Virus record (IMG/VR): IMGVR_UViG_3300035182_002389
Location: 1 to 64,000 of that record
Direction: 5' to 3' (one strand)
DNA length: 64,000 nucleotides
DNA from: a virus
Lineage: Duplodnaviria > Caudoviricetes
Positions 19,870 to 55,289 of this stretch are shown here, piece after piece. The position numbers and the translations under genes are program-made. Every line of letters begins with the position of its first letter. Within the stretch, counting starts at the first letter, position 1. The notes under the pieces are model-generated. The model had not been told where the DNA came from. It saw only the letters and a list, made by a program, of their open reading frames with translations, and did no database searches.

Positions 19870-20046
19870 CCCGTTCCCGTTCCCGTTCCCGTTCCCAGCG
19901 CGCCGAAGGCGCGCGTTCCCGTTCCCGAATCTCGTGCCGAAGGAGCGTCGAGAGCGAGAGCGAGACGAGATCGGGCAGCGGGAACGCTCGCTGCGCTCGC
20001 TGGGAACGGGAACGGGAACGGGAACGGGAACGGGAACGGGAACGGG
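19870..20046 (+). repeat. Family A element: (GTTCCC)n ... (GGGAAC)n inverted arms with internal cGAAg hairpins
   Basis: 4 GTTCCC units at left, 7 GGGAAC units at right, gcgcgccgaaggcgcgc hairpin, conserved core gagacgagatcgggcagcgggaacgctcgctgcg. Confidence 0.92.
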
Positions 20047-21263
20047 TGAGAATCGAGGAGCTGGGATCGAGGCGCGAGTGTGACGAGGCGACGGGGGTCG
20101 CCCGCGGGAGAGACCATGAAGGCGAAGTTGAAATGCGGCGCGCCCACGCGCACCGCGCAGTTGCATCCATCGATCCGCATCGGCGGCGTCGCGCTCGAAC
20201 GCTGCGAGCGCGACGTGCTGCCAACCATGACGGTGTGCGAGCTGCACGCGTCGCCCGACGCCGTCCGCATCGCGATGACCGCACTCGCGGCGCGGAGGAC
20301 GCCGTGAAGGTCCGTCTGAAGGTCGAGATGAGCGCGGACGTCGTCGTCGAGATGACCGCAGAGCAGTTCGCGGCGCTGGAGGAGAACCTTCCCTGCTGCG
20401 AAGACGGTCTCCCCGGCACGATCCAAATCGACTGGAGCGAGGCGATGAACGGTCTCACTGACCTGGAGATCGTCGACGCGGACGAGGTGAAGCCTCCAAA
20501 ATCGAAGGCGGTCGAACCGTGATCCGGCTCGCCGACCTCGTGAAGAGGGAAGGTTCGCTGAGCCCGAGGCAGGTCGGCCAGGTCCGAAGGTGGCTCGCGG
20601 ACGATTGGGAGACCGCGGATCTCGGCCGAGACGTCGTCAAGCTCATCAAGAGGATGCTCGCGACCATCGACCTCGCAGCGTCCCGCCCGAGGTAGCCCGT
20701 GCATTTCCTCGAAGCGGCAGTGCGCCGTGGAGAGCTTCGCCACCTCCTGCTCAACCAGCGCCACGCAGCCGTCCTCGTGCACGTCCGCGCGAAGGAGAAG
20801 GTCCTCGTCCTCGATCCCGGGCTCCACATCGCCAAGGGCGACGTGCAGTGGCTCGTGCTGCCCGAGGAGTGGCGCATCGTCAGCCCCGACGGCGACGTCA
20901 TTCGCCCTTCAGGGACCTTTCTTGTCACCGTAGAGACCTTCGACCCGTGTCACATGGTTGCCGACGTTCGCGACGATCTCATCCCCTTCTACCTTCGACC
21001 CAAGAAACGGCGCGCGAGATGACCGTTCCCGAAGAGTTTCCGCTCGACCTCATTCGCCTCTGTCGCAAGCACGATGTCGCGATCACGTCATGTCGGTGTG
21101 GCGATGGAATCAAGGCGACGCGCGCGAGCGAAGATGGACCCTTCCTCTGCGGCATCCTTGTTGACGCCGATCATGCCGAAGCGCACACGGGGTACTACAG
21201 CGGCGACGAGATTCGCGTGTCGCTCGACGAGATCGTGGTCGTCGAGCTACGAAAGGAGGAGCC

Positions 21264-21680
21264 ATGATCTCTTCCTTGCTCGCGACCGCATCCTCTTTCG
21301 ATTCCACGACTTACGCCCCGGAGGCCTACCCGTCGTGGAGGACGATCGTCTTGATCTTGACCGCCACTCTCTTGCCGATGCTCGCCGCGATGGTCGTGGT
21401 CATCTGGGCCGTGCTCGCAAAGCGCAAGGTGGTGGTCGCAGCGCCGCCCGTGAGCGCGAACTACAAGATCGAACGCCTGATTGTGCACGGTCCTCGCTGC
21501 CAAGCGTGCGACAAGGCGTTCGTTGACGACGATCTCGTGCTCGCGCTCGAAGGTCGCCCCCTCGCCCATGCGCGCTGCCTCGCGGTGGAAGCGAACAAGC
21601 GCCCCGGCAAGGCAACAGCCCTGCCGCTTCCGCGCACCGACGACGAGCCTTCCAGACCCTCCTCGGAGCGCGTCGTCTGA
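21264..21680 (+). CDS. membrane protein with a zinc/LIM-like motif
   Basis: TM followed by CQAC...HARC. Confidence 0.55.
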   Translation: MISSLLATASSFDSTTYAPEAYPSWRTIVLILTATLLPMLAAMVVVIWAVLAKRKVVVAAPPVSANYKIERLIVHGPRCQACDKAFVDDDLVLALEGRPLAHARCLAVEANKRPGKATALPLPRTDDEPSRPSSERVV

Positions 21681-22148
21681 TGGCCCGCGGACGCGTCAAG
21701 GGACGCCCCTACCGCTTCGCTGGCGCCCGCATCGCAGCGAGTGACAAGCTCGCGTGCATGGTCGAGAGCCCGTCGTTTCCGTTCTACTGCTGCTCGCGCG
21801 TGAAGAGGCACCCAGGCGATCACATCGCCTGCGTGTTTTCCGAATCGACCGACGAGCCATCGAGAACGGTCGCGCAATGGCCGCGCCGTGAGGAGCCCAA
21901 ATGGTGAAGCCGGACCGGCCGTTGAACCTCGACAAGCTGAGCCACCGCTTGCGAGCGAGCAAGCGCATCGGCGTCTCGATGACGTTCATCGATCTCGACG
22001 ACTTTCAGAAGCTCATCGATCTCGCCGAGAAGGTGGAGCTGCTCGGCGCGCTCTACGAGACGCGCAAGACCGATCGCACGACGTACGACGACGTGGCCGC
22101 CGAAGTGATCCGCGCAGGTCGCAGCCTCGCCAAAGGCTCTCTCTGACC

Positions 22149-22163
22149 GGCTCGTCGTAAGTC
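22149..22163. promoter_or_regulatory. GGCTT-N5-AAGCC palindromic operator candidate (variant)
   Basis: ggctc-gtcgt-aagtc, intergenic. Confidence 0.4.
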
Positions 22164-22759
22164 GCATAAGCCGCCGGATTCATAAGCACGTACTTTAGGT
22201 CGTCGATTGGCGTTGCGTTCGAGCCGTTGTGGTGTATTCTCGACATCTGATCTTCTCAGGCGAGGGAAGATCGATTCGGCGAGATGGGGCACATGGCGAA
22301 GAAGGCGGCGGACGAAGGTCTGACGGAGGGGCTGCTTGCTCCGAAGCGGACTCCCATGTTCGAGGCGAGGCTCACGGGCTTTCGCGATGCGCAGCGCGTC
22401 TGCCTTCGCGAGTCCGCGGCCTCGTTCGTCGAGTGGGGAAAACTCCGTGCGGCAGGGGAGCAGGCGAAGCTTGGGCCCGTCCAGGTCCGCTACCAGGCCA
22501 TCCGCGCGCTGCGTGAGAAGATCGAGGAAGCGAGCCGCTGGGCGTGGAACGAGACGACGCTGACGACCGAGTGCGACCACGACCTCACCGTGGACGAGAC
22601 CATCACGAGCGCGAAGTTCTGCCGCCGGTGCGGCGTCGTCGTCGCGGCCGAGTCGCACGAGAGCGTGCTCGAATGGCTGCTCGACAAGCTGAGGAAACGC
22701 GGCGACTCCGAAACTCTCGTCGCTGAAGCTGAAGCCCGCCTGCGTACAAGGAGCGCACC

Positions 22760-24274
22760 ATGAGGCGACGAGAAGGACTGCTTTCGACCGCGTTCGCCGC
22801 GCTCGCCGTGCCCGGATCGGGTTCGTCCATTCAGCACGTGATGGGCGAAACGCTGAAGTACCAGGATCGCTTGGAGGCCGCGGAGCATCTCCCCGACCCG
22901 CCGACGATGCCCCTGTGGGACATCTTCCTCGGGCTCGACACGCTGGACCTCGTCAAGCTCGTGCTCCTCATGAACGTGCAGAAGATTGTCGTCGAGAACG
23001 TTGCGAAGGCCGAAAAAGTCGGCAATCGGACGGTCGGCGAGGTCTGGGAAATGTGCGTTATGGCCGTGTCCAGTCGGAAGCTTCCGAAGCAGGCGGTGAT
23101 CGACGCGAAACGCATCATGACCAACGGCGCGAACATGGAGTCGCAGAACCAACTTCGATACGGGTGTCTGACCGCGATTCGATCTTTGCAAGAAGAGCCC
23201 GAGCGCCAGATCGAGGCGGCGCGCGCTCTTGCCAAGAGCGACTCGACGCTGATGGACGAAGAGACGCGCGAGGTGATCGAAGCGGTCGTCGAAGAAATCG
23301 AGCGCAACATGCGCAAGGACGGCAAGCTCGGAGCTTCGTCGCCAGCGCAGGCTTTTGCTTCCGCGGTGAATAGGAAGCTGTTGCAAAGGCCCACGTCGAC
23401 GATTCGGCAGCCCGCACGTCTCGTGATGATTGAGTGGGGGGCGCACGCGCTGGCCCTCTCCAACGCGGGCGAAGCCGACGGTCTCGACCGATCCGCATTC
23501 GAGCTGACGCGGGCAAGCCTCTCGGATCAAGAGCTGCGAGATGGTTCGGAAGAATCCGAAAAAATGGCCCAGGCGGCTGAGATTGCAGTCTTCATGGGCG
23601 TCGCTTGGGCCGCGTGCGGCTTTCCACAAATCGTACCTTCCCACAAACTCGCCGCCGCTCTCATGGCTACGGACTTGCCGGAAAACGTCGAACTTCACCT
23701 GCCGTGGAACTCTTTCGCCGTGGTTGTGCCTGACGGTCTTTTGCCCGAAGACGCTTCCAGTTCGCGTTACAAGTCGGTCGATATGATCGGCTTGGCGATC
23801 AGCGGAGAAGCGAAAATCGGCGTGTGGATTGGGCACAAAAACCACGGCATCATCGGGGTCGATACATTTCCTTCGCTTGGCGAGATGCTCGCCTGCAAGA
23901 GCTATGAGCCGGAGCAGGAGCTGCTCATGCGCCTTCTCATCGGCTGCATTTTGGAGATGGATTCGCCTCGCGCGCGCGAAGGTGTCCGCACAAGTGCCAT
24001 CGCAAGGAAGAAAAGCAGGGAAGACAAGCGTCCGACCGCGTGGAGTTTCGAGCTGAAGCGAGACGTGAAGGTCGACTGTCGCTCGTGGGTGCGCGACTAC
24101 GTCTCCTCGGGCGGGACTTCTCCGTCGGTCCGATCGCTTGTGCGCGGACACCAGAAGAGGCAACGCTACGGCCCCGGCGGAGCGCTCCGAAAGTGGATTC
24201 ACATCGAGCCTTATTGGAAGGGGCCGCTCGACGGCCCGATTGCTGTGCGAGCGCACAAAATCGGAGCCTCGTGA
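22760..24274 (+). CDS. large hypothetical protein with conserved phage C-terminal VRGH..RQ..G..RKWIHIEPYWKG domain
   Basis: C-terminal motif recurrent in phage ORFs; lower GC3 than neighbours. Confidence 0.65.
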   Translation: MRRREGLLSTAFAALAVPGSGSSIQHVMGETLKYQDRLEAAEHLPDPPTMPLWDIFLGLDTLDLVKLVLLMNVQKIVVENVAKAEKVGNRTVGEVWEMCVMAVSSRKLPKQAVIDAKRIMTNGANMESQNQLRYGCLTAIRSLQEEPERQIEAARALAKSDSTLMDEETREVIEAVVEEIERNMRKDGKLGASSPAQAFASAVNRKLLQRPTSTIRQPARLVMIEWGAHALALSNAGEADGLDRSAFELTRASLSDQELRDGSEESEKMAQAAEIAVFMGVAWAACGFPQIVPSHKLAAALMATDLPENVELHLPWNSFAVVVPDGLLPEDASSSRYKSVDMIGLAISGEAKIGVWIGHKNHGIIGVDTFPSLGEMLACKSYEPEQELLMRLLIGCILEMDSPRAREGVRTSAIARKKSREDKRPTAWSFELKRDVKVDCRSWVRDYVSSGGTSPSVRSLVRGHQKRQRYGPGGALRKWIHIEPYWKGPLDGPIAVRAHKIGAS

Positions 24275-25002
24275 AGCTCTACTTCAAGGTCGGCACGATG
24301 CCGGCTCGCTACTACGACGTCTACCGCAAGAGGAAGGCGCCTGTCGTCGGTGACGTCTTCAAGATCATCGACACCGCCGTCGCCGGCAGCAAACCGTTCC
24401 AGGTGCGTCTCACCGAGATCAAGCTGAACCCGTTTGCGGTCGCCATTTACTTCGTCGAGCAGTGGTGAAAGGAAACCGTTCGTTGGCCCTCATCGACCTC
24501 AAGCTCTCCCACAACGCGCTGCTCAGCATCTTCGACCTCCGAGGCGTCGGCGTCGACGGATGGCTCTCCATGAAGCGGGGAGAGGTCACGGCCCGCGACA
24601 CCATCCACGTCGACGAGGCGGTCACGATGGACGTCCTCTACATGCTCGTCGAGACGCTCGTGCGCGCCTCGCCGCCCATCTCCGAGCTGTTCGCCGTGGA
24701 GGTGTCGGAGAGCCGCGCTCGGGAGCTGTCCGGCGGCAGCGAGGAGCCATCATGAGCGAGAAGGACGAGTTCATCGCTCTGCCCGTCGACATCTCGAAGG
24801 TCGAGTTCGTTCCGATCGCTATCCATCTCTCGGCGGAGACGGTCCGCGGCATGTGCCGTCACTGTCGCGCGATGCGTGAGCAAGGGGCGAGCGAGGAGGA
24901 GATCAAGGCCTCCCACGACGCAGGGCTCAAGAAGCTCTTCAACGAGGGCGACGTCTACTACTGCGACACCGATCGCGACGACAGCAACAAGGAGGAACCT
25001 TC

Positions 25003-25308
25003 GTGAAGGTCATCGAACGCGCGCCGGCGAAGAAGCCGTGGTCGGCCGAAGCGGAGTGCATCGGCTACGGCAACGGCAGCCCGAAAGGCTGCGGCTCGAA
25101 GCTTCTGGTCGAGGAGGGCGACCTCTACAAGACGTACAGGGACTACTCCCGTGAGAACGCGGCCTCGGGCATCTACCCGACGTTCACGTGCCCGGTCTGC
25201 CACGCCGAGACCGACGTGCCGCTCAAGGGCTTCTCTTCGCATCTGCTCGCGAGGCTTCCCGCGAGGGGTGAACACCCTCTCTACCAGGCGGCGAGGGACG
25301 AGCGATGA
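25003..25308 (+). CDS. zinc-ribbon protein, tandem paralog 1
   Basis: C.G.GNG..GC..KLLVE.GDLYKT...FTC..C. Confidence 0.7.
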   Translation: MKVIERAPAKKPWSAEAECIGYGNGSPKGCGSKLLVEEGDLYKTYRDYSRENAASGIYPTFTCPVCHAETDVPLKGFSSHLLARLPARGEHPLYQAARDER

Positions 25309-25604
25309 AGGTCCTCGAAAAAGGGCGCCCGCAGGCGGGCTGGTCGGTCGAGACCATGTGCACGGGCGCAGGCAACGGCAACGGAGGTTGTCGCGCGAAG
25401 CTCCTCGTCGAGCAGGGCGACCTCTACAAGACCGAGAGCAGCGCTCGGGACGAGACGACGACGTACACCACCTTCACGTGCGCCGACTGCGGCGTCGAAA
25501 CCGACCTGCCCTCGCACATGGTCCCCGGACGCGTGCAGAACCTTCTGCCGAAGAAGTCCAATCACCCGATCTACCGCGACCAGAAAGACAAGGGCCTCCT
25601 ATGA
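25305..25604 (+). CDS. zinc-ribbon protein, tandem paralog 2
   Basis: Same motif as the upstream gene. Confidence 0.7.
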   Translation: MKVLEKGRPQAGWSVETMCTGAGNGNGGCRAKLLVEQGDLYKTESSARDETTTYTTFTCADCGVETDLPSHMVPGRVQNLLPKKSNHPIYRDQKDKGLL

Positions 25605-25915
25605 GCATCGACGGCAGCAAATACGAGTGGAAGCTCTGGGTCGGCCAGGACGAGACGATCAAGATCGAGATCGTCGGTGAGTTCGACGACGCCGGGCCCA
25701 TGCCGATGCCGAACCTCGGCCACACGGTCGACGCCTCCGTCTACGCGCAAGAGGAGACCGTCTGCCACGACAACCTCGACATGGAGAACGCCGTCGCGCT
25801 CTGGAACGCGATCGGCCTCGCGATCCTCCAGGCGGGCGGCAAGCTCGAAGTCGAGGATGCCATTCGTCAGGCCGTCCTCGAAGACCGTTTGTCCGACAAC
25901 TGAGGGAGCGTCGTC

Positions 25916-26353
25916 ATGAAGGAAGAAGTGAGAGCCCAGGTTCGAGAGATCGACGGACAGCTCGTGCTCGATGACCCCGACGCCCTCGCGGTCCTGAAGG
26001 TCGTCGCGAAGCTCAACTGCGCGGCCCTCTTCGACGACAGCAAGGAGCGCGTCGCCCACTTCGCGAGGCGCGTCGTCGAGCGCGGCCTCAAGTCCGAGGA
26101 CGTGGTCATCACGATCCTCAACGTCGACGACGTGCACGGCGGCCCCATCGCCGACATCCTCATGCCGAACCACCCGTGGGAGGAGTACCGAGCGCGCGGC
26201 GAGCTGCCCGTCGCGCGAGGGCTCGCCGGGCGCGAAGGCATCCAGGCCGTCCTCGAAGACTTCGACAAGGAGGCCGCGGCGAAGCTCCGGGCCTACAAGG
26301 GCGTCGCGGTCGTGGTCGTCGACCACGGCGTCGCCGAAGTCTACCCGACGTAG
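25916..26353 (+). CDS. hypothetical protein
   Basis: GGAG RBS; coding-like. Confidence 0.6.
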   Translation: MKEEVRAQVREIDGQLVLDDPDALAVLKVVAKLNCAALFDDSKERVAHFARRVVERGLKSEDVVITILNVDDVHGGPIADILMPNHPWEEYRARGELPVARGLAGREGIQAVLEDFDKEAAAKLRAYKGVAVVVVDHGVAEVYPT

Positions 26354-26621
26354 GAGGACGACCATGCACACCCTCGAAGTCAGTCACGGCTCGATCCGCG
26401 AAGGTCTCGCGACCATGCGCGTGCACCACAACAGCGATTGGTCGGGCACCGCGATCGTGCACATCGGCCGCAACGACTCGACGTACGATTTTGAGATCCC
26501 GGGCGAGATCCTCGTCAAGCTCGCCTCCTCGATCCTCGGCCCTTCGCTGCACAGCTCGCTCGACGACATGCTCGACAACCTCGTCCGAAGGGCGATGGAG
26601 TAGAGCGTCCGAGGTAAGGTC

Positions 26622-26636
26622 GGCTTTCGACAAGCC
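26622..26636. promoter_or_regulatory. GGCTT-N5-AAGCC operator candidate
   Basis: ggctt-tcgac-aagcc, intergenic; identical to 48523. Confidence 0.55.
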
Positions 26637-27239
26637 GGGATGGGCAGAGCAACGGTCATGGTGGACACCTGGCATCAATGCGTCGGTTGCCGGCGCTGGT
26701 TCTACGACGAGGAAGATCACGACGGCCACATGCCGTGCCCGGGGATGATGATGGAGCTGTTTCCCGAGACCTGTTCTCACGCGAAGCCCGACCTGCGAGC
26801 CCTCGACGATCTGCTGCTCGGCATCCAACGGGGCCGCGTCACCCTCGTGCGCGCGAAGGCGACCCTGGCGCGTTGGCTCGCGGGCGAGGACGTGAGGAAC
26901 GAGGTGCAGCTCGACGCGCCCATCCACGTCGACCCGGACTCGCCGCGGGCGGTGCTCGAATGGCTCATCGACACGCTCGGCCGACACATGTGGGCTTACC
27001 CCAAGTCGCTCGCAAAGCAGGCGGCCGAGGCCATCATGCGCAGCGACGCTGCCCCCTACCAAGCGTTCCCCGTCACGTCGCCCGATCTTCTCGACCGCGC
27101 GCTCGACCAGCTCGAACGCTCGAATGAGCAAGACCGCGAGCACTTCTTCCTCCGGCTTCGGGCGCGCTTCTGCCTCGCGTGCGGGAGCAAGACCGACCAC
27201 CGCCCCTGTTTCTGCGAAAACGATGAGTGAAGGAGAACC

Positions 27240-27875
27240 ATGTCGAACGTTCGCACCCTTTTCGGAGGCGGCCCGAACAGTCCGCCTCGCACGGCCAAGC
27301 GCCCTCGCGGCAAGAAGCTCGACCCGGACTTCGGCAACATGTCCGCGCCGTCTTTTGTCCGCCTCTACATGCGTATTCAGGAGTCCCTCATGATCACCTT
27401 GCCCACCTGGCGCGAGAAGCTCCAGGCCCAGATCCCCCGCGTCATCGGCGTTCTCAACCATCTCCAGCGCGGCGGGCCGACCGACCCCATCACGCTCGAC
27501 GCTTCCTACCGCCAGTCCGAGAAGGACGGCTACGGAGGCGACGGCCCGAAGAAGGTTTCGCCGGGGCAGAACGTGTCAATCGAGATCGAGTGCGAGCTGG
27601 GCTCGTTCGAGCCCGTCGACATCGTCGTCGACGCGTCCATCGCGCGCTACTTCGACATCATCTCGTTCAAGGTCGGTCGCGACGAGCAGCTCTGCTCGCA
27701 GAAGCCCGTCTCGGCGACGCACTACGCGAGCGATCAGGCTCTCCGGCGCCCGAACAAGATGATGACGTGCAAGACGCACCTCAAGATGTGCCTCGTGGTG
27801 CGCAACATCGGCCAGAAACCGCACACGTTCCGGGCAGTCGTCGTCGGCCGGCTCATGCCGACGCCGTGGGTGTAG
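27240..27875 (+). CDS. beta-sandwich (possible jelly-roll-like) protein related to the minus-strand paralogs
   Basis: FEPVDIVV..FDIISFKVGRDEQ..VRN....FRAVVVG pattern shared with ORFs at 48649 and 50541. Confidence 0.55.
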   Translation: MSNVRTLFGGGPNSPPRTAKRPRGKKLDPDFGNMSAPSFVRLYMRIQESLMITLPTWREKLQAQIPRVIGVLNHLQRGGPTDPITLDASYRQSEKDGYGGDGPKKVSPGQNVSIEIECELGSFEPVDIVVDASIARYFDIISFKVGRDEQLCSQKPVSATHYASDQALRRPNKMMTCKTHLKMCLVVRNIGQKPHTFRAVVVGRLMPTPWV

Positions 27876-27906
27876 CAGGGTCCGGGGCGCGCTCGATTTC
27901 GTCCTC

Positions 27907-28026
27907 GTTCCCGTTCCCGTTCCCAGCGCCGAAGGCGCGTTCCCGTTCCCGAAACCCGCCGAAAGCGAGACGAGATCGGGCAGCAGGAACGCTCGCTGCG
28001 CGAGCTGGGAACGGGAACGGGAACGG
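27907..28026 (+). repeat. Family A element, intergenic
   Basis: Same arms and core as 19870. Confidence 0.92.
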
Positions 28027-28029
28027 AGC

Positions 28030-28058
28030 TTGACGAGATGGATAAGGTCATATAGTAT
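28030..28058 (+). promoter_or_regulatory. sigma70 promoter
   Basis: TTGACG-17-TAGTAT immediately after the family A element. Confidence 0.65.
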
Positions 28059-28093
28059 GGCCTTATCAACGTTCGAGGCGAGGAGAGCGGACC

Positions 28094-28594
28094 ATGGCGA
28101 CGCGTAGGCCCACCATCCACAACGAAGAGGTCGTCGGCCTCGCGGCGAGAAACCTCGTCGCCAAAGCCGTGCGCGAAGATGCGAACTTGGAGGGTCGAGA
28201 GGACGATTTTCTCGTCGGCGTTTCCCACGCGATCCAGTACAACGACGACGGCTACGACATCTGCCGATCGCTGGAGAGCGACGGTTGGGAGCCCGACGCA
28301 AAGCTCGTCGAGATCATGGACCAAGCCATCTTCGAGAAGATGGAAGCGCTCTCGACCGCCGAGCAGGTGTGGGCGGCGAAGGAGAAGATCGTCATGCGGT
28401 TCGGCGTGCGGGAAGCCGTCACGTTCGCCGACCGCACCGGCGCGTGGCAGAGGGGCGTGATCCTCTCGGTGGACGAGCGCCGCGCGAAGTACACGGTCTT
28501 CTGCGAAGCGCTCGGACACGTCCCGCAAGGTCAGAGCGGTGTGAGCGGCGTCATCCTGAACGAAGAAGAATGTTCGGCCGCGGAGGGCGTGTGA
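28094..28594 (+). CDS. hypothetical protein
   Basis: AGGAG RBS. Confidence 0.65.
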   Translation: MATRRPTIHNEEVVGLAARNLVAKAVREDANLEGREDDFLVGVSHAIQYNDDGYDICRSLESDGWEPDAKLVEIMDQAIFEKMEALSTAEQVWAAKEKIVMRFGVREAVTFADRTGAWQRGVILSVDERRAKYTVFCEALGHVPQGQSGVSGVILNEEECSAAEGV

Positions 28595-28659
28595 AAGCCG
28601 GGAAGACTGCGAAGCCTGCGAAGCTGCCGACGCTCGCCGAGATCGAGGTCGCGCTCGGC

Positions 28660-28716
28660 GAGGTCGGGCAGCGGGAACGCTCGCTGCGCGAGCTGGCAAC
28701 GGGAACGGGAACGGGA
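28660..28716 (+). repeat. Family A right-half fragment
   Basis: gaggtcgggcagcgggaacgctcgctgcgcgagctggcaacgggaacgggaacggg. Confidence 0.85.
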
Positions 28717-36340: not shown

Positions 36341-36490
36341 GGCGACTGAATCCCGCCAAAGGCGACTGAATCCCGCCAAAGGCGCCCGATCCCGCGCCGA
36401 AGGCGCGCCCGATCCCGCGTCGAAGGCGCGCCCGGTCCCGGTCCCGATCGCCCGGCCCCGGCCCCGGTCCCCGAGACGAGACGAGACGAA
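36341..36490 (+). repeat. Family A variant ((GGTCCC)n arms, cGAAg hairpins) preceded by a 20-bp tandem duplication
   Basis: ggcgactgaatcccgccaaa twice (36341-36380), then cgcgccgaaggcgcg, cgcgtcgaaggcgcg, ccggtcccggtccc, gagacgagacgagacg. Confidence 0.85.
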
Positions 36491-46977: not shown

Positions 46978-47319
46978 GGCACGTCCAAGCGGCAGTGGAG
47001 TCGCCGCCTTTCCGGCGAGCAGACGCTCTACCTCGTGAACAGCGCGAAGGAAGCTTGGAGCTACGCGTACCACGCCGCAGAAGAGGACGAGCTGGAAGGC
47101 CGCACTCCCGAGCCCATCGTGCTCGCGATTCAGCTCGGCGATCTGCGAGGCCTCACGCGCCTGCCGGACGACGCCGCGATCCGTTCCGGCGAGCTGCCCG
47201 CGTCGGCGAGCTGGCGCGACACGCTTCGCGCGGTCGGCTCGTTTGCGGTCTTCGGGCGCATCGAGCGCTACAAGCGGTTCTTCGCGAGGGTCAGGCCCGC
47301 GACGAGCTTGCGCGAATAG
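46963..47319 (+). CDS. ADP-ribosyltransferase-like protein
   Basis: LFHGTS...LYLV..A.SYA. Confidence 0.5.
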   Translation: MLLFHGTSKRQWSRRLSGEQTLYLVNSAKEAWSYAYHAAEEDELEGRTPEPIVLAIQLGDLRGLTRLPDDAAIRSGELPASASWRDTLRAVGSFAVFGRIERYKRFFARVRPATSLRE

Positions 47320-47540
47320 CCCGCCGAGAGTCGAGGGCTCGGCCCGATGCGCGAGTCGGGTGAGGGTAGCGGTGAGGGGCCCGCACAACCTCCCCCTGAG
47401 CCCGCGCCCGTCCAGCGCACGCACGGCCTCGGGTGAAGGCTGCGGCGCCGGGGGCACGGGCACCCCACGGCGCTGCTGGCTCAGATTCTAGGTGGAGCGG
47501 GTGGCTGCGGGGCGCGTCCAGCGTGCGAAGCACGCGCTGC

Positions 47541-47590
47541 CCGTTCCCGTTGCCAGTGAGCGAAGCGAACGTTCCCGTTCCCGCTCTCGC
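47541..47590 (-). repeat. Family A right-half fragment, inverted
   Basis: Reverse complement matches the copy at 53448. Confidence 0.8.
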
Positions 47591-47627
47591 TCTGCTGGCT
47601 GCGGGTGCGCCGACGCTCGCCCCAACG

Positions 47628-48452
47628 TCAACCGAGAACGCCGTAGAGCGTCACGTTGCGCGGCAGGCTGATCGTCTGGGGGCTGCCGTTCTTGAACTCG
47701 ATCGTGAAGGGCATGCCGCCGCCGAGAACGATCGGCTTGAGGTCCAGGGGCACCGAAATGGAATAGAACCCGTCGGCGATGGGCGCCATGAGCCCGTTGA
47801 CGCGCGTCTGATACATCGCCGCGGCGTTCGCGTTCTGCGTCTGCGCGGGAACGTTGGCGCTCGAAGGCGGCCAGACGATGTTACGCCCTGCTCGGACGAC
47901 GTCAGGCATCGCTGCCGCACCGTTTGCGTCGAACTCCCACGAGATGCCCGTCGGTCTGAACTGTCGACCGCTCACGAAGGCCATGATCGCCTGCGATCCG
48001 CCGTTGCCGGGAATGCTGGGAGCGATGCCCGGGGGCAGGTTCCACGCGAACGGAATGCTCGCGTCGAACGGGCCGAGCTTGGCACGCTGCGCCGGGTTGA
48101 GCGTCGCCCGCGCGGGAGCGCGCAGCGCCGCCGCGTTGAACGCCAGGGGCGCCGCGGTGCGCACGGGGGACGTTCCCTGCTGGCGAAGCGCAGCCATCGC
48201 CGCGCCGTCGGCACCGCCGAGGTGCGCGAGGGCGGAGGCCGCGTGGACGTCGGGCGTCACGAGGCCGCCGAAGGGCTGCACGCCGGCGGTGTGGGCGGCG
48301 TACATCGAGGCCGCGTGGACGTCCGCGGTGAGCAGGCCCGAGAGGGGATGGTTCGCCGAGCGACGGAGCTGCTCGGTGTACGAGAGGCCGCGCGCGGCGG
48401 GCGCGCCGCCGGTCTGGGCGTGGTTCTGACCGCAAGAGGGGCAATAGGGCAT
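47628..48452 (-). CDS. CPxC-family virion-like paralog 4
   Basis: MPYCPSCGQNH; PFGGLVTPDVHAASALAHLGG repeat; beta-rich C-terminal domain. Confidence 0.7.
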   Translation of the reverse strand: MPYCPSCGQNHAQTGGAPAARGLSYTEQLRRSANHPLSGLLTADVHAASMYAAHTAGVQPFGGLVTPDVHAASALAHLGGADGAAMAALRQQGTSPVRTAAPLAFNAAALRAPARATLNPAQRAKLGPFDASIPFAWNLPPGIAPSIPGNGGSQAIMAFVSGRQFRPTGISWEFDANGAAAMPDVVRAGRNIVWPPSSANVPAQTQNANAAAMYQTRVNGLMAPIADGFYSISVPLDLKPIVLGGGMPFTIEFKNGSPQTISLPRNVTLYGVLG

Positions 48453-48522
48453 GGAGGATCTCCTTGCTGCCGAGGCTACCACTTTTGCTTCGACTCGTGC
48501 CAAAACAAGAAGACGCCCTCGC

Positions 48523-48537
48523 GGCTTTCGACAAGCC
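48523..48537. promoter_or_regulatory. GGCTT-N5-AAGCC operator candidate
   Basis: ggctt-tcgac-aagcc, intergenic. Confidence 0.55.
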
Positions 48538-48556
48538 GTGCGCCTCACACCTCGCG

Positions 48557-48640
48557 AGACGAAAAGGACGCGCCTTCGGCGCGAGCACGACCTTCGGTCG
48601 AGGACGCTCCTTCGGAGCGAGGACGCGCTTCGCGCGAGGC
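48557..48640. repeat. Family C array of four mini-hairpins
   Basis: gagacgaaaaggacgcgccttcggcgcgag cacgaccttcggtcgag gacgctccttcggagcgag gacgcgcttcgcgcgag. Confidence 0.9.
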
Positions 48641-48648
48641 GAGAAGTC

Positions 48649-49131
48649 TCAGAAGCGGTTGTACGTGAGCTTGCCCGAAGGGAACGCGAGGGGCGCGTCG
48701 GTCGGGTTGTAGAGGATGACCGAGAGCTGCTTGGTCACAGGCCAGCCTGCGAACGCGGGGTTCAGGGCGACGTCTTGGTTCGCGCGGGCGAGGTAGAGCT
48801 GGCCCGCGCTCGTCGGCACGGGTTCGAGCGTGAGCTTGCCGAACGACCTGTGAGCCTTCGCACGGTTGATGACGTCGCGGCCGACCTTGATCTCGGCGAT
48901 GTAGAGGTCGGGGCTCTCGAAGGTCACCGTGACGGGCTTGATGGGCGAGCCCGTGTAGTAGATCGCCTCCTTGAACCCGTGCGCGGGGACGATCCCCGCG
49001 CCGGGCAAGGGCATCGCGTACGCCCCACGGTGGAACATGCTCTCGATCATCGCGAACGCTTTTGACGAGCGCGGCACGATGCCGGCGCCCGTTTGGGCGT
49101 GCGCGGTTCCACAGTGGGGGCAACGCTTCAT
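48649..49131 (-). CDS. CPxC-family virion-like paralog 3
   Basis: MKRCPHCGTAH; IAEIKVGR; VILYN..F..G. Confidence 0.7.
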   Translation of the reverse strand: MKRCPHCGTAHAQTGAGIVPRSSKAFAMIESMFHRGAYAMPLPGAGIVPAHGFKEAIYYTGSPIKPVTVTFESPDLYIAEIKVGRDVINRAKAHRSFGKLTLEPVPTSAGQLYLARANQDVALNPAFAGWPVTKQLSVILYNPTDAPLAFPSGKLTYNRF

Positions 49132-49153
49132 GGTGCGGCCTTCTCTCGCGAGA

Positions 49154-50464
49154 TCAGGAGACCAAAGCCGAGAGCGTCACGTTCTGCGGGACGCTCGTGA
49201 GCGCGACCGGACCGGGCCCGCGGTTGACGAACTCGACCCAGAAGCCCGAGCCCGCCTGACCGGGCGCCGACTGACCGAGCTTGAACGCCTTGAGCGCGCT
49301 GAGCGAGACCGATCGGGTTGCGCGCTGCTTCGTCCCCTGCGACGCGGCCCGCGGACCCGCGCTGCCCGCCTGGTAGACGTAGCCGTTGTTCGCGTGGATG
49401 GCCGACAGCTCCCAGCCCGCCGAGGCCGCAGCGCTCTGCCACTGGAGCGTGTTCGGCTTGATGGTCTCGCCGTTCTCGGGCAGGTACACGCGGAAGTTCG
49501 CGCCGACGGGGTAGTTGGTCCCCGGCGGGAAATGCGGCACCGGCGGGTCCGGGAACGCGAGGGTCGCTTGATGCGGCGCGACCGTTGCGCGGGCAGGGAC
49601 TGCGACCTTGGCGGCCGTGTTGCCGATGCGCCGATACGCGACGGGCGCCGCGGTGCGCGCCGGAAGCGCGTTCGCCTGCTGCATGGCCTGGGGGACGCTC
49701 TGCATGCCGGCCGGGCCGCCGAGGTGCGCGAGGGCCGAGGCCGCCTTCACGGGGGGCGTGACCAGGCCGCCGAAGGGGTTTGGCGCGCCCATGTGCGCGA
49801 GCGAAGAGGCCGCGTGCACGCCGGGGGTCACGAGGCCGCCGAAGGGCAGCGCCGCGCCGGTGTGCACGGGGGTCCACGACGCCGGCAGGTGGAGCACCTC
49901 GCCGACCTTGAGGTCCATGAAGTTGCCGTCGATCTTGTTGGTCGCCTTCTGCGGGTTCGCAGCGGCCAGCGCCTTCCACATGTCCTTGCGGCCCGTGTGC
50001 TTGTGCGCGATGTGCGAGGGCGTGTCGCCAGCCCGCACGATGTAGACGTTGCCGCTCGCCTTCTGCTCGGCGGGCTGCACGGTGGCGGCCTGCGCGGCGG
50101 CCTTCTGCGCGGAGGCGATGAGGTTCTTCTTCGCCGTGGTCGCGCCGGTGTGCATGGGGACCGTGCCGTTCACCGACTGGCCGTAGCCGTGGCTCTGGGC
50201 GCTCGGGGCGACGGAGCGGGCGTTGAACTGCGACACGGGAACGGGCATCGCCGTGAGGTGCTGCGGGGCGCCTGCGTGCGCGGCCTGGTAGGACGGACGG
50301 CGCGCGTTCTCGATGGCCGCCTTCGCCGCCGCTTCCTGGAGGACGGCGGCTGCGTACACCTGCTGCGTCTGCGAGCGGTAGGGGCTCGCCTGGGGGAGCG
50401 CGGGCGCCCCGGTCGCGGCGTGGGGGAGAGGGTGGTTCGTACCGCAAAAGGGGCAGAAGGGCAT
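49154..50464 (-). CDS. CPxC-family virion-like paralog 2 with LysM domain
   Basis: MPFCPFCGTNH; YIVRAGDTPSHIAHKH..W.ALAAAN..L.VGEVLHLP. Confidence 0.78.
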   Translation of the reverse strand: MPFCPFCGTNHPLPHAATGAPALPQASPYRSQTQQVYAAAVLQEAAAKAAIENARRPSYQAAHAGAPQHLTAMPVPVSQFNARSVAPSAQSHGYGQSVNGTVPMHTGATTAKKNLIASAQKAAAQAATVQPAEQKASGNVYIVRAGDTPSHIAHKHTGRKDMWKALAAANPQKATNKIDGNFMDLKVGEVLHLPASWTPVHTGAALPFGGLVTPGVHAASSLAHMGAPNPFGGLVTPPVKAASALAHLGGPAGMQSVPQAMQQANALPARTAAPVAYRRIGNTAAKVAVPARATVAPHQATLAFPDPPVPHFPPGTNYPVGANFRVYLPENGETIKPNTLQWQSAAASAGWELSAIHANNGYVYQAGSAGPRAASQGTKQRATRSVSLSALKAFKLGQSAPGQAGSGFWVEFVNRGPGPVALTSVPQNVTLSALVS

Positions 50465-50540
50465 GGGAGAGCTTCCTTGGTGGATCGAGAACGAAGCGGC
50501 GGACCTCGCGCGCGAGTTCACGCGCGAGATCCGCGGAGGA

Positions 50541-51281
50541 TCAGGAGACGAAGCCGGTCGGCATGATCGCCGCGCCCGTCGCGTTGTGGAACACGATGTA
50601 GAGGTGGTTGCTGTTGATGGTCGCACCCATCGGCAGGTTCTTCGTCCACACCATACCGCCCGTGTCGAGCTGAATCCCTCGGCACACGCCATCGTTGGCG
50701 GCGGGAACGCCGATCGGGGTCGCCGAGCACGCGTCGTACGTGCCGGTGCGACCGGAGGCGTCGAGGGTCGGGAGCGCCTCGTTGCGGCCGACCTTGACCG
50801 AGGAGACCTGAAGACCAGGACTCGTGATCGTGACGCTGCGCAGAGCGATGTCGCTCGGCGTCTGATAGAGCGCGAACACGGTCGCGCCCGGGGCGATGGG
50901 CTTGTCGAGCGCGGGCAGTGCGATCGCGCTCGGCGGCGTCGGCGGCGTCGACGGCGTCGAGGAACCGCCGGAAGGCGCCGTGAGGTTTAGTCGGAAGCGG
51001 CGCGCGTTGAACAGGAAGGGCGCGCCGGTCGCGGCGCCGGCCATGAGACCGTTGACGGCGGCGCGCTCCTTCTGCTGCTGCGCCTGGATGACCGAGGCGG
51101 CCTTCTTCGCCTTGAGCTGCTGCTGCACGTGGAAGCTCGACGGGCGAGCCGTCAAGCCGTGCTGGGCCTGCTCGGCAATGGCCGCGGCGTAGATCCGCTG
51201 GACCTGCGAGCGGTAGGGGCTCGCCTGGGGGACGGCCCCGACGGCGGCGTGGTTCTGGCGGCAGTGGGGGCAAAGCGACAT
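50541..51281 (-). CDS. CPxC-family virion-like paralog 1
   Basis: MSLCPHCRQNH; PQASPYRSQ shared with paralog 2; VSSVKVGRNE. Confidence 0.7.
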   Translation of the reverse strand: MSLCPHCRQNHAAVGAVPQASPYRSQVQRIYAAAIAEQAQHGLTARPSSFHVQQQLKAKKAASVIQAQQQKERAAVNGLMAGAATGAPFLFNARRFRLNLTAPSGGSSTPSTPPTPPSAIALPALDKPIAPGATVFALYQTPSDIALRSVTITSPGLQVSSVKVGRNEALPTLDASGRTGTYDACSATPIGVPAANDGVCRGIQLDTGGMVWTKNLPMGATINSNHLYIVFHNATGAAIMPTGFVS

Positions 51282-51345
51282 GAGGACGGCTCCTGATCTC
51301 TCGGGTTCGTCTCGCATCGTACCACTGCCGTACGGGTCCGAGAAC

Positions 51346-51360
51346 AGCTTGTCGCAAGCC
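51346..51360. promoter_or_regulatory. GGCTT-N5-AAGCC operator candidate
   Basis: agctt-gtcgc-aagcc in the divergent intergenic region. Confidence 0.5.
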
Positions 51361-51438
51361 GTGAAACCCTGAACGCTTTGCCAGCGACTAGATACATTGA
51401 CAACTCATGTACGTTGTGCGATCCTCACGTCTGACTCC

Positions 51439-53148
51439 ATGAAGAAACCGAACGCGGGAAGCGAAAAGAACGCGCCGTTGGCGCGAGCACGCGCTTCGCG
51501 CGAGGACGCTCCTGCGGAGCGAGGACGCTCCTTTGGAGCGAGCGGCGAGAAGCAAAAGTACGTCGCGGGGCGCCCCGTGCGGGTCGGCGACAGGTTCGGC
51601 GAGCTGACCGTCACCGAGCAGATCGAAGCGCCCGACCACAAGACCTACCAAGGTCGGCACTGGCTCTGCACGTGCGACTGCGGCAACCCTGCGATTCGCA
51701 CGACCACGACGCTTCAGCAAGCGCTCGCAAAAGGGCACGTCTCTTCCTGCCGAGAGTGCTGGCTGGAGCTGCTCCGATCGCGCACGGCGGAGACGTTCGA
51801 CCAGGAACGAACCAAGACGCGCACCGCGCTCGCATCGCTGTGGGCGCAGCATCGAACGCTCTACAGCGTCGCCTACGACGCGCGCGAAGAAGAACGGATT
51901 CGAGACGCCATCGAAGAGGACGGGATCCCGATCCGGTCGGAGGAGTCGCTCTCCGAGCAGTACGCCGTCGAGCCCTCACTGCTGAACGTCGACGCTCCCT
52001 CGTCGGCGGAGACGACCACGGCCCCGGTGCAGCGCGCCGCGTACCTCTATCCCGTCGGAGGCGGCGAGCTTTGCTGGGCGTGCATCACGTGTGGCGAGAC
52101 CTTTTCGCGAGGGTTCGGGTGCACGCTCTGCATCGAGCCCGTCTGCATGGACTGCGTGAGGAGCGAGGCGCACGTCCACACCGAAGACGAAGACGGCCTG
52201 ATGCTGCATCAGATTGCGGCGGAGTTCGATCGGAGCCGCGAGCGCGTCCGGCAGATGGAGACGCAGGGTCTCACCAAGCTGCGTCACCTCCACATGGCTT
52301 CACTCGTCAGGACCCTCGGGGCGGACTACGTGAGCGTGCACGCGTTTCTTCGCGCCTTGCACCCCGAGCTTCTCGACGTCGGCGAGATGCTTGCTGTGCT
52401 CGACTGGCGCGAGCGCATGGCGCGCGAAGCGAAGGTCGCCGCGTACAGGGCCGCAGAGGAGGCGGCCGAGAGGGCCGCAGAAACGCGGAGGATCATCGAA
52501 GAGCGTCGCCAGGCCAAGCGTGAAGAAGAACAGCGTCGCCGGGCCGAGCTTGCTGCCCAACCCGAGGAAGTGAGGGCGCTTCGTATTCAGCGCAACCTCG
52601 CGCGTCGTGAGACGGAGACGACGCGGCTGGCGAACGATCTCGCAGCCTGGCACGCGAACCTCGAAGCGTTGCGTGCGAGCGAGCCCGAACGAGATCGGCG
52701 CGCGGCCGAGGCGAAGAGCGCGCTCGAACTCGAACGCATCGAGAACGAGAAGAGGCGCAGCGCCGAGGTGATGGAAGAGGCCCGTAAGACCCTCGCCACG
52801 ACCTCCGCCGTCTTCGTCCCGAGCAAGCTCAGGGTCGCCGCGCGCAAGCAAGACCTCCTCGCGATCCTCATGCTCCCCGTCGGCGAGTTCGATTTCAGCG
52901 AGGAGGTGCGAGGCGCACTCGTCGAGGCCGGCGCCGAGTACATCGGCGATCTTCTCTGCGAGCTGTCGTGCCCGCCTTCGCGATGGGTCGGACCTCTGCT
53001 CGGCGCGGAGGTGCTGTTCGCGTTGCGAGAGGTCGGCCTCAACTTCGGCGTCAACATCTACGCGCTCACGGGCAGGAAAGGCTCGGAGCTGCCGTTCGCG
53101 ACCCCGTTCGTCAAGCGGATGGGGAAGGTTTCAACCAAAAAACATTGA
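51439..53148 (+). CDS. multidomain transcription-factor-like protein (CxCxC zinc module, sigma70 region-4 HTH, coiled coil, RNAP alpha-CTD-like domain)
   Basis: GELTV..WLCTCDCGN; LHQIAAEFDRSRERVRQME..GL.KLRH; LPVGEFDFS..GALVEAG..IGDL. Confidence 0.7.
   Translation: MKKPNAGSEKNAPLARARASREDAPAERGRSFGASGEKQKYVAGRPVRVGDRFGELTVTEQIEAPDHKTYQGRHWLCTCDCGNPAIRTTTTLQQALAKGHVSSCRECWLELLRSRTAETFDQERTKTRTALASLWAQHRTLYSVAYDAREEERIRDAIEEDGIPIRSEESLSEQYAVEPSLLNVDAPSSAETTTAPVQRAAYLYPVGGGELCWACITCGETFSRGFGCTLCIEPVCMDCVRSEAHVHTEDEDGLMLHQIAAEFDRSRERVRQMETQGLTKLRHLHMASLVRTLGADYVSVHAFLRALHPELLDVGEMLAVLDWRERMAREAKVAAYRAAEEAAERAAETRRIIEERRQAKREEEQRRRAELAAQPEEVRALRIQRNLARRETETTRLANDLAAWHANLEALRASEPERDRRAAEAKSALELERIENEKRRSAEVMEEARKTLATTSAVFVPSKLRVAARKQDLLAILMLPVGEFDFSEEVRGALVEAGAEYIGDLLCELSCPPSRWVGPLLGAEVLFALREVGLNFGVNIYALTGRKGSELPFATPFVKRMGKVSTKKH
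51463..51545 (+). repeat. Family C array, in-frame in the N-terminus of the 51439 gene
   Basis: Four units incl. gacgctcctgcggagcgag; encodes KNAPLARARASREDAPAERGRSFGAS. Confidence 0.8.
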
Positions 53149-53173
53149 CATGTTTATGTAGTTGATCCAAACT
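53145..53173 (+). promoter_or_regulatory. sigma70 promoter overlapped by the ACATGTTTATG motif
   Basis: TTGACA-17-CAAACT; AACAT-TGAC-ATGTT inverted repeat. Confidence 0.55.
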
Positions 53174-53447
53174 GAGCGTTCCCTCGCGAGGGTCTGAAGG
53201 AGACGGTATGGGCGAGACGTGCAAGCTGAGGGCGTGGGGGTCGGGCGACAAGGAAGACTGCGGCTCGCCGGCGGGCTCGCACGGCTACTGCCAGAAGTGC
53301 TACCCGCTCGTGCGAGGTGGCATCCTCGCGCGCATTCGAGAGGCCGAGCGCGACCTCGAATCCGACAGGTTGGAGCTGCGCCAGCTCGAAGCGGCAGAGG
53401 CTCGCGACATCGCCAAGCGCTGCTTCGGCGGAGACATCTGAGGCAAG

Positions 53448-53523
53448 GCGAGACGAGATGGGGAACGGGAACGCTCGCTTCGCGAGCTGGCAACGGGAAC
53501 GGGAACGCTCGCTTCGCGAGCTG
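53448..53523 (+). repeat. Family A right-half fragment with internal duplication
   Basis: gggaacgggaacgctcgcttcgcgagctg twice. Confidence 0.85.
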
Positions 53524-53537
53524 TGGAGAAGGCCATC

Positions 53538-53927
53538 GTGGCGAGCAACCCCCGCAAATCGCAACACCTCTGCGTCCACAACCTGTGCAAGAACCTTCGC
53601 GAGCCCGGCAAGGCTCGCTGCTGGGTGCACCTCGGTTGGGCTGCGCGCCATTCTGCGACCTACCGGCAGCGGCGCGAGAGCCAGGGGCTCTGTCACCACT
53701 CGGCGTGCAAGAAGCGCCCGGTGAAAGACCGCCGCTTCTGCAAGCCCCACCTCAAGCTCCACGCCGAGAAGACCAACGAGTACCTGAAGCGCAAAGCGAA
53801 GGAGCGCGAGCGTCTGAACGCCGACATCTCGCGCGCGATGGCGCAGTCGAGCATCGCGCAAACGAAGGCGGCCAAGCCCGCGAAGAAGACCGTGAAGAAG
53901 ACCGCGAAGAAGAGGGCAAGCCGATGA
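53538..53927 (+). CDS. protein with repeated C-x-C-K-C-xx-H zinc knuckles and basic tail
   Basis: CVHNLC..RCWVH; CHHSAC..FCKPH. Confidence 0.65.
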   Translation: MASNPRKSQHLCVHNLCKNLREPGKARCWVHLGWAARHSATYRQRRESQGLCHHSACKKRPVKDRRFCKPHLKLHAEKTNEYLKRKAKERERLNADISRAMAQSSIAQTKAAKPAKKTVKKTAKKRASR

Positions 53928-54172
53928 CCGAGCACTCCGTGGACGTGTCGATGGGCAGTGGCGAGGTGGCGGCGCACGAGGACGGCTCGATCGAGCTTCG
54001 CGCCTCGTCGATCGAGACGGCCCTGCTCGTGCTCGCGAAGATGCTCTCCGACCAAGGCAAGGTCATGGTCCGGGTGAAGGGCGACGGCTCGATGGGGATC
54101 GTCGCGACGCTCTCGATCCACGAAGCGCCCAAGCCGTCGTGAGAGGAAGAGGAAGAGGAAGAGGAAGCGACG

Positions 54173-55180
54173 ATGCGCCTTGGATGGATCACCGACCCCC
54201 ACATGAACTTCGTGAGCACGCTCGACTGGTGGCGCGAGCTGCTCAAAGAGGGCGACGACGCCTACCTCATCACGGGCGACATCGCGGAGGCCTCGTCCAT
54301 CATCCCGTCGCTCCAGGCGCTCGCGGCGGAACTGCCCGCCGGCAAGGTCATCTACTTCGTGCTCGGCAACCACGATTTTTACGGCTCCTCGATGCCGGGC
54401 CGTCCGAGGGCGACCATCGCGGACACGCGCGCGAGGGTCGCACACTTCGCGAAGTACGAGCCGAAGCTCGTCTACCTGCACGACCTCGATCCCTTTGCCA
54501 GCGCGCCGAAGGCGCGCGTTCCCGTTCCCGTTCCCGAATCCCGCGCCGAAGGCGCGTCTCGTCTCCCTGCGCTGGGACGAGACGAAATCGGGAAGGGGGA
54601 ACGCTCGCTGCGCGAGCTGGAAACGGGAACGGGAACGGGAAACGGGTACGTCGAGATCGCTCCGAACACCGCGCTGGTCGGCGTCGACGGCTGGTACGAC
54701 ACGCTCAACGGCGACGTGAAGAGGAGTCGCTGCGGACTCGCGGACTTCCACCTCATCCCGGACATGAACTGCCCGGCGAAGGAGAGGAACGCCCTCTGCC
54801 AGACCCTCACGATGATGGACGCCGTGCGGCTCCAGAAGATGATCGAGAACGCGCTCGGCGACAAGCGCGTCGTCGAGCTGGTCGTCGCGACGCACGTGCC
54901 GCCGTTTTCGGGCGCGGCGTGGCATCTCGGCGAAGTGAGCGACTCCGAGCACCTGCCCTACTTCTCGAACCGCCTCGTCGGCAAAGCCATCGTCGAGTCG
55001 ACCGAAGACTTTCGACAAGCCGGCGGCAAGGTGACGGTGCTGTGCGGCCACTCGCACTCGGAGGGGAAAATCTATCCCCACCACAACCTCAAGGTGCTCA
55101 CCGGCGCGGCCGAATACTACGCGCCGAAGAAGCACATGACGCTCGCGCTCGGCGAGCTTGTCCGTTCGGAGAACTGGTGA
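54173..55180 (+). CDS. calcineurin-like metallophosphoesterase with in-frame repeat insertion
   Basis: TDPH, TGDI, LGNHD, THVPP, CGHSH motifs. Confidence 0.88.
   Translation: MRLGWITDPHMNFVSTLDWWRELLKEGDDAYLITGDIAEASSIIPSLQALAAELPAGKVIYFVLGNHDFYGSSMPGRPRATIADTRARVAHFAKYEPKLVYLHDLDPFASAPKARVPVPVPESRAEGASRLPALGRDEIGKGERSLRELETGTGTGNGYVEIAPNTALVGVDGWYDTLNGDVKRSRCGLADFHLIPDMNCPAKERNALCQTLTMMDAVRLQKMIENALGDKRVVELVVATHVPPFSGAAWHLGEVSDSEHLPYFSNRLVGKAIVESTEDFRQAGGKVTVLCGHSHSEGKIYPHHNLKVLTGAAEYYAPKKHMTLALGELVRSENW
54497..54646 (+). repeat. Family A element, 150 nt, in-frame (50 codons)
   Basis: Encodes ASAPKARVPVPVPES...RELETGTGTGNG between YLHDLDPF and YVEIAPN. Confidence 0.92.
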
Positions 55181-55289
55181 CCTTCCCGGCGGGCGACCGA
55201 AGGTCGCGAGCCGCCCGATCCCGCACCGAAGGTGCGCCCGGTCCCGGTCCCGTTTTCCCCGGTTCCCGGTCCCCGCTTTCCCGTTTCTG
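55181..55289 (+). repeat. Family A variant, intergenic
   Basis: gcgaccgaaggtcgc and gcaccgaaggtgc hairpins, ccggtcccggtccc units; similar to 36381. Confidence 0.8.

Follow-up and report, generated by a model that had tools for sequence, protein, structure and literature searches.

A stop-free, hexamer-armed palindromic repeat of a 202-kb virus genome lies in frame in two enzyme genes and resembles the ends of bacterial PF05635 cassettes

The virus record IMGVR_UViG_3300035182_002389 is a single record of 202,518 bp with 65% G+C, and its first 64 kb (the window) was analyzed for a short palindromic repeat with hexamer arms, here called Family A. The whole virus contains 13 Family A loci, 5 of them full palindromes and 8 consisting of a right half alone. 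Two enzyme genes each contain a copy in frame, and the gain or loss of copies in the lineage of this virus is recent. We favor, with moderate confidence, the view that Family A is a selfish, gene-less palindromic element, the non-autonomous shell of a class of bacterial cassettes built around a PF05635 gene, and that it is moved by a factor acting in trans. A gene-less cassette shell fits the combination of a modular palindrome, recent gain and loss, lack of a target duplication, toleration in frame, absence of a mobility gene, and ends shared with the cassettes.

Copies and architecture of Family A

The loci are short (51-226 nt), non-coding and multi-copy, and carry inverted hexamer arms. 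The window holds eight places, comprising three full copies, three right halves, and two left-type variants with GATCCC/GGTCCC hexamers (Table 1). Outside the window are five more loci, counted as seven places: full copies starting at 81160 and 113006, and right halves starting at 81958, 113509, 124525, 126547, and 142182, with 81160/81958 and 113006/113509 forming close pairs. The motif GGGAACGGGAAC occurs 22 times in the window and was found 0 times in 100 shuffles. A preliminary description, made from the letters of the window alone, had listed eight places, mostly just after stop codons. The repeat is present at all eight, and seven of them start 0-60 nt past a stop codon.

Alignment of the five full copies showed a fixed order of modules and upheld the design given in that description, namely hexamer arms of variable unit number, cGAAg hairpins, and a conserved core. 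On the left, a (GTTCCC)n arm leads into a GC hairpin whose triloop is GAA; a further pair of GTTCCC units then precedes GAATCCCG and another hairpin. After a variable spacer comes the core GAGACGAGATCGGG..GGGAAC; a GCTCGC/GCGAGC hairpin and TGG then lead to the right arm (GAACGG)n, which is a (GGGAAC)n array. Because the right-half profile finds the left halves too, on the opposite strand, a full copy consists of two inverted halves around a center, each made of a hexamer array and a GGGAAC-flanked hairpin. Either strand, as DNA or RNA, therefore folds as one long stem. Computed folds of the full copies range from -79 to -130 kcal/mol with the arms paired, with z-scores of -4.7 to -10.6 relative to mononucleotide shuffles. 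The two left-type variants belong to the same broad family, since one relative has a contig in which a variant arm runs straight into a standard right half. The five full copies contain no stop codon in any of the six frames, the genome mean being 1.6% per codon. Slippage of the arms by hexamers, each equal to two codons, never breaks a reading frame, and only the length of the element has to be a multiple of three. No Rfam family matched Family A at its gathering score, and no element matched the intrinsic-terminator pattern.

The hexamer arms are sites at which short-read contigs often break, and we considered whether the repeat might be an assembly artifact or chance low-complexity sequence. 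Contigs from one Joint Genome Institute (JGI) assembly and three Logan assemblies are, however, 100% identical to the genome through whole elements (L210 at the 19870 copy, L206 at 27905, L207-L209 at 53448, and L205 spanning the phosphoesterase copy, insert included). The identity of these independent contigs rules out an assembly artifact; together with the excess of GGGAACGGGAAC over shuffled sequence and the related yet distinct copies in diverged relatives, it leaves artifact or chance with a negligible probability.

Copies elsewhere were sought by several routes. Look-ups of exact proteins from around four loci yielded no contigs other than ones identical to this genome. Contigs from four other runs, compared with positions 36300-56299, were mostly unrelated or broke inside the arms, and gave no clean allele of the phosphoesterase site. 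Neither blastn against phage records nor a protein-guided scan of viral contigs found a close relative. Pattern scans of viral contigs gave chance coding matches and one unrelated GTTCCC-rich spacer. The latter lies upstream of a gene in an unrelated IMG/VR virus (L030:4600-5000) and contains densely spaced single GTTCCC/GGGAAC hexamers in either orientation, resembling a cluster of putative protein-binding sites.

Table 1. Positions of Family A copies and adjoining features, numbered from the first letter of the virus record
Feature	Position	Strand	Description
Full copy	19870..20046	+	(GTTCCC)4, GAA-triloop hairpin, (GTTCCC)2, second hairpin, core GAGACGAGATCGGG..GGGAAC, GCTCGC/GCGAGC-type hairpin, (GGGAAC)7; immediately 3' of stop codon 19867-19869; RNA fold -130.5 kcal/mol, z -10.6
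Full copy, short arms (3 + 3 units)	27905..28026	+	30 nt past stop codon
Right half (core, hairpin, GGGAAC arm)	28654..28716	+	End lies 10 nt upstream of start codon at 28727
Variant left-type copy	36381..36470	+	CCCGATCCCG-cGAAg hairpin units, repeated, then GGTCCC/GGCCCC hexamers
Right half	47540..47590	-	Between two minus-strand genes
Right half, GGGAAC-hairpin unit doubled	53448..53523	+	Between stop codon 53439-53441 and next gene
Full copy in phosphoesterase frame	54485..54646	+	Protein residues about 105-157; degenerate left arm
Variant left-type arm	55181..55289	+	cGAAg hairpins, then GGTCCC/GGTTCCC/GCTTTCCC hexamers; directly 3' of phosphoesterase stop codon
Calcineurin-like metallophosphoesterase gene	54173..55180	+	335 aa; homologues 260-290 aa, thousands found
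Small open reading frame (ORF), 37 codons as compared	55293..55406	+	Behind variant arm 55181-55289, spacing as in bacterial PF05635 cassettes
Second repeat family, window	36478-36560, 48553-48626, 51455-51528
Second repeat family, rest of genome	113567-113658, 125650-125757

In-frame copies, gain and loss

Two Family A copies are intragenic and in frame, one in a metallophosphoesterase gene and one in a 5'-3' exonuclease gene. The metallophosphoesterase is longer than its homologues, among which Minicystis is named. In an alignment with 13 of them, the insert of about 52-54 residues falls in a gap that none fills, whereas the metal ligands Asp-8, His-10, Asp-36, Asn-66, His-67, His-241, His-293, and His-295 are invariant. 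The preliminary description was thus right that the copy is in frame, forms a clean insert relative to homologues, and leaves the metal-binding motifs intact. Its length has to be revised: the degenerate left arm begins at 54485, so the inserted stretch is about 156-162 nt and not the 150 nt (54497-54646) first given. An AlphaFold model has a confident core, with a predicted local distance difference test score (pLDDT) of at least 90 for 190 residues, and matches solved metallophosphoesterases. Residues 112-153, between strands 99-101 and 160-163, have pLDDT values below 50 and no secondary structure. The insert is therefore predicted to form an unstructured loop joining two strands of a fold that is elsewhere modeled with confidence, in keeping with the earlier suggestion that the element creates new protein loops. 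An intron or intein identity was rejected: no Rfam family was matched at gathering score, and no intein blocks are present in the insert peptide.

The second intragenic copy is a right half at 124525-124577, outside the window, in a gene with the exonuclease domains PF02739 and PF01367. Compared with the Taq and mycobacterial enzymes, it accounts for 16-19 extra residues. The protein of one relative, P0123, is 94% identical over the aligned columns and is without exactly those 19 residues, so that an empty allele is known at the protein level only. Another relative, with 97% DNA identity, has one extra GGGAAC at the insert, a difference of 6 nt or two codons. The spacing of genes on the P0123 contig hints that two further elements are missing there, and a small Cys/His-rich ORF at about 125160-125350 seems absent from the same contig.

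A pattern scan of metagenome contigs yielded three contigs from relatives that are 95-98% identical to this genome (L038, L040, and L042). Contig L042 matches window positions 39240-40995 at 98% identity and carries a 174-nt full copy where the window is empty at 40816-40820; this site in a spacer precedes a start codon by 17 nt. Contig L040 has a right half in place of a 45-codon ORF of this genome. One arm of the 81160 copy has 9 units in one genome and 4 in another, a clean 30-nt difference between relatives. The third contig, L038, is colinear with this genome and has both its elements present. These differences show that very close genomes vary both in the presence of Family A copies and in the length of their arms, and that gain or loss within the lineage is recent. 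Of the two hallmarks of insertion that the preliminary description had proposed to look for, empty-site alleles exist, at 40816-40820 relative to L042 and at the exonuclease insert relative to P0123. Target duplications are not visible at the junctions of the L042 filled site, and the flanks of six full copies share no common repeat. In comparisons of genome positions 78469-78606 and 79094-79393 with L040, small ORFs differ at gene junctions between relatives that are 95-97% identical, in one case through replacement of an ORF by a right half.

The main alternative is that Family A is a regulatory or RNA-processing module owned by the virus and situated at gene boundaries, as a 3'-end stabilizer, an RNase III site, or a terminator without a T tract. 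Such a module would have spread from copy to copy through homologous or illegitimate recombination, a route proposed for promoter stem-loops (PeSLs) in T4-like phages, and its presence inside genes would be accidental. The siting of window copies behind stop codons is what this alternative predicts, as is the finding that right halves end 4-70 nt before start codons. In one-directional gene blocks, 9 of 10 copies follow the direction of transcription, and copies occur at joints where the gene content of relatives differs. Orientation is nonetheless an ambiguous guide, since 12 of the 13 copies and 66% of the genes are on the plus strand and the bias is confounded with gene direction. The copy at 81958 opposes its operon, others lie between convergent or divergent genes, and two are inside conserved enzyme genes. 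Only 13 of roughly 250-300 gene junctions carry a copy, and a relative that is 98% identical differs in which copies it has. Neither the intrinsic-terminator pattern nor Rfam recognizes the element, and in distant bacteria an unrelated gene lies between ends of the same structure (below). We therefore regard a regulatory module as unlikely.

PF05635 cassettes and known element classes

A scan of bacterial genomes for (GGGAAC)4 gave 120 loci, most of which are unrelated coding repeats. Six contain inverted (GTTCCC)n...(GGGAAC)n pairs. At one of these (L062) the pair encloses an intact PF05635 gene; IS1380-type fragments at the same locus are broken remnants. At three others (L065, L093, and L156) the pair holds only the first and last few codons of a PF05635 gene, and these loci are internally deleted shells. 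At a seventh locus, not among the six (L118), a left array, (GCTCCC)3-GTTCCC, and a facing (GGGAAC)4 array enclose an intact PF05635 gene and hardly anything more.

Armed PF05635 genes are not confined to these loci. GNNCCC arms were found at 13 of 30 PF05635 loci in three metagenome-assembled genomes (MAGs), and inverted tandem 6-7-mer arms of other sequences at 10 of 25 further loci in 41 genomes of one order. Across L203 and L213-L235 the arm units also include the hexamers GTGGCC and TGATCG as well as heptamers; the sequence varies by lineage and the layout is constant. Four near-identical armed copies in one MAG were rejected as a case of arm-driven movement, as their outer flanks are also shared and they thus lie within a larger repeat. 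A full-text literature search, of incomplete coverage, found no description of PF05635 genes with tandem-repeat arms as mobile DNA.

The 23-nt hairpin unit, flanked by GGAAC and CTGG, has more than 20 occurrences in one Lysobacterales MAG. The unit is part of tandem arrays of the form GGGGAACG-stem-loop-stem-CTGG with co-varying stems, and one unit is identical to that of the virus. One PF05635 gene in this MAG (E value 2.7e-33) is preceded or followed by at least 10 of these units and has five inverted ones at its opposite end. In the same MAG (L203), inverted octamer arrays, GTCACGGA, flank another PF05635 gene.

In the virus itself, the small ORF at 55293-55406 is the sole candidate for a trace of a cassette gene. 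Its first approximately 20 residues align with the PF05635 N terminus with 10 of 19 identical (pairwise E value 9e-6). Pfam gave no match for it, and in a search of the six-frame virus translation with the PF05635 profile it ranked second with a non-significant E value of 0.14. The ORF is possibly a truncated PF05635 remnant. With no PF05635 gene in the virus and only this weak likeness, Family A is at most a gene-less derivative of a PF05635 cassette.

PF05635 is the S23p ORF family of the intervening sequences of 23S rRNA genes in Coxiella, Leptospira, and others (PMC4990558). These intervening sequences are regarded as selfish elements with terminal inverted repeats that form a stem cut by RNase III, and their origin and mobility are unexplained (PMC4990558). 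Family A resembles them in that its ends form one long stem and in that cassettes with matching arms carry the S23p protein family. It differs in having no ORF, in lying between or inside virus protein genes and not in rRNA helices, and in having arms of tandem hexamers instead of unique inverted repeats. By analogy, the transcript stem of Family A is probably a substrate of RNase III, and the arms may make intergenic insertions harmless at the RNA level.

Six-frame searches of the whole 202-kb record found no Y1 transposase of the repetitive extragenic palindrome (REP)-associated type (RAYT; PF01797), no TnpB zinc ribbon (PF07282), no DDE_Tnp_1 (PF01609) or rve (PF00665) domain, no reverse transcriptase (PF00078), and no PF05635. 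The earlier remark that no transposase is visible in the window thus extends, for the transposase families searched, to the entire virus. The same description had called the element non-autonomous, MITE- or REP-like, and spreading. Non-autonomy, in the sense that no mobility gene is present, and gain and loss both hold. Membership in either class does not, as no target-site duplication is seen and there is no link to a RAYT, and "MITE" and "REP" describe its behavior only.

Family A resembles miniature inverted-repeat transposable elements (MITEs) in being short, non-coding, and multi-copy, with terminal inverted repeats, presence or absence in close relatives, and no transposase in the virus. 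A target-site duplication was not found, nor was an autonomous partner in which the same ends flank a transposase; the bacterial elements with the same arms carry a PF05635 gene. Virus examples are MPME1 and MPME2 in mycobacteriophages and the Pandoravirus MITEs, for which the host carries the autonomous partner. Those elements have target duplications and known transposase partners, whereas for Family A no duplication was seen and no transposase-bearing partner is known.

The likeness to REPs and to their inverted doublets (REPINs) raises the alternative that Family A is moved as single-stranded DNA by a host RAYT, a Y1 HUH enzyme, with the GGGAAC beside the hairpin acting in the manner of the GTAG tag. 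Full copies consist of two inverted hairpin-bearing halves with a conserved flanking tag and solo halves also occur, like REPIN doublets, the likely mobile form, and REP singlets, which are remnants, and the lack of a target duplication agrees with such a mechanism. The Lysobacterales MAG with tandem arrays of the same hairpin unit and co-varying stems also has Y1 genes. However, none of its four Y1 loci has the unit within 1.5 kb, and its arrays instead bracket a PF05635 gene. The presence of 12 of 13 copies on one strand, which would favor a single-stranded route, is a marginal bias (about P 0.035) when the 66% of plus-strand genes is allowed for. Family A further differs from REPs in that its tag is in tandem arrays, two copies are intragenic, so that the elements are not strictly extragenic, and the virus has no Y1 gene. 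Movement by a RAYT is accordingly judged quite improbable.

Rickettsia palindromic elements (RPEs) are palindromes of about 100-150 nt that lie in frame in protein genes and add a surface peptide with the fold kept. The phosphoesterase and exonuclease copies are likewise palindromic in-frame insertions with the fold kept. Family A differs in being mostly intergenic, with variable-number hexamer arms and solo halves, and in residing in a virus and not in Rickettsia. As the organism is a virus of a GC-rich bacterium, we do not claim RPE membership.

Under the preferred reading of a gene-less cassette shell, Family A would be built only from the end structures of a wider class, in which a gene for a PF05635 four-helix-bundle protein lies between inverted tandem 6-8-mer arrays. 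Copies land mostly in short intergenic spacers. The two intragenic copies persist in frame; the element is stop-free in all frames and its arms resize only by whole hexamers. Inside proteins it would form floppy surface loops. Movement would depend on a factor in trans, from the host or from an intact cassette; this factor may be the four-helix-bundle protein acting on the hexamer arrays together with host recombination or repair.

Several observations weigh against this reading. The exact left and right halves were not found in the genomes of 185,579 species, where searches gave nothing or chance matches, and no donor or host copy was found. No virus copy encloses a PF05635 gene, and the match of the sole candidate remnant is not significant. 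The link to the cassettes rests on shared end structures, which could be convergent, as GGGAAC runs occur in many unrelated genomes. We know of no DNA-mobility activity of PF05635 proteins. The filled and empty alleles could also have arisen by recombination or deletion, and neither a target duplication nor a conserved target motif was found. Finally, two in-frame inserts out of two have a chance probability of about 1 in 9 given a stop-free element, each event having a one-in-three chance of being in frame, so that two survivors are no proof of selection.

Neighboring features and biological meaning

A sigma-70-like promoter match (TTGACG, 17 nt, TAGTAT) lies at 28030-28058, right behind the right arm of the 27905 copy, and is the sole such match in 19500-29000. 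The variant copy at 36381..36470 abuts a member of a second, hairpin-array repeat family (Table 1), in which GAGACGA..GACGAAAAGGACG precedes three or four GC hairpins; these have triloops of TTC and the spacers AGGACG/AGCACG. The second-family copy at 125650-125757 appears, from gene spacing on the ENA contig of P0123, to be missing from that relative. A third repeat of 50-110 nt, CGGGAGGGTTYGGGAGGGGCG..CAGCCCCTYCC, occurs in the window at 48-99, 3696-3838, 3989-4128, and 11270-11392, with an inverted copy at 58934-58997; the members of one inverted pair are separated by 55 kb and show 97% complementarity.

Contig L042 also carries, at 1105-1894 (window 40342/40343), an intein of about 263 codons that this genome does not have. 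It is situated in the YCDTDS motif of a family-B DNA polymerase, begins with SISADRTVV, and ends with VLLHN, followed by Thr. In the window, the DNA polymerase region at 38725-40781 is divided between two overlapping frames, 38725-40527 and 40083-40781, with YCDTDS in the second; the overlap could reflect a frameshift, a split gene, or a sequencing error.

To our knowledge, reports of small palindromic insertion elements from bacterial viruses are rare, and Rickettsia provides most known cases of in-frame insertion into enzymes. Because filled and empty alleles are at hand for both kinds of site, intergenic and intragenic, the process in this virus is recent and open to study. A broader proposal, which is conceivable but which we consider rather doubtful, is that armed PF05635 cassettes are a widespread, undescribed form of transposase-less mobile DNA, perhaps moved through binding of the protein to its own arrays. 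Shells of such cassettes would have invaded a giant bacterial virus, where they would reshape enzymes in frame and mark joints of gene content, and the cassettes would be the source of the intervening sequences of 23S rRNA. The shared ends tie Family A to the S23p family of these intervening sequences; if the tie is true, it becomes testable whether a four-helix-bundle protein binds or moves array-flanked DNA. The stop-free, hexamer-periodic design of the element also shows how a genome can acquire protein loops and change their length fast.

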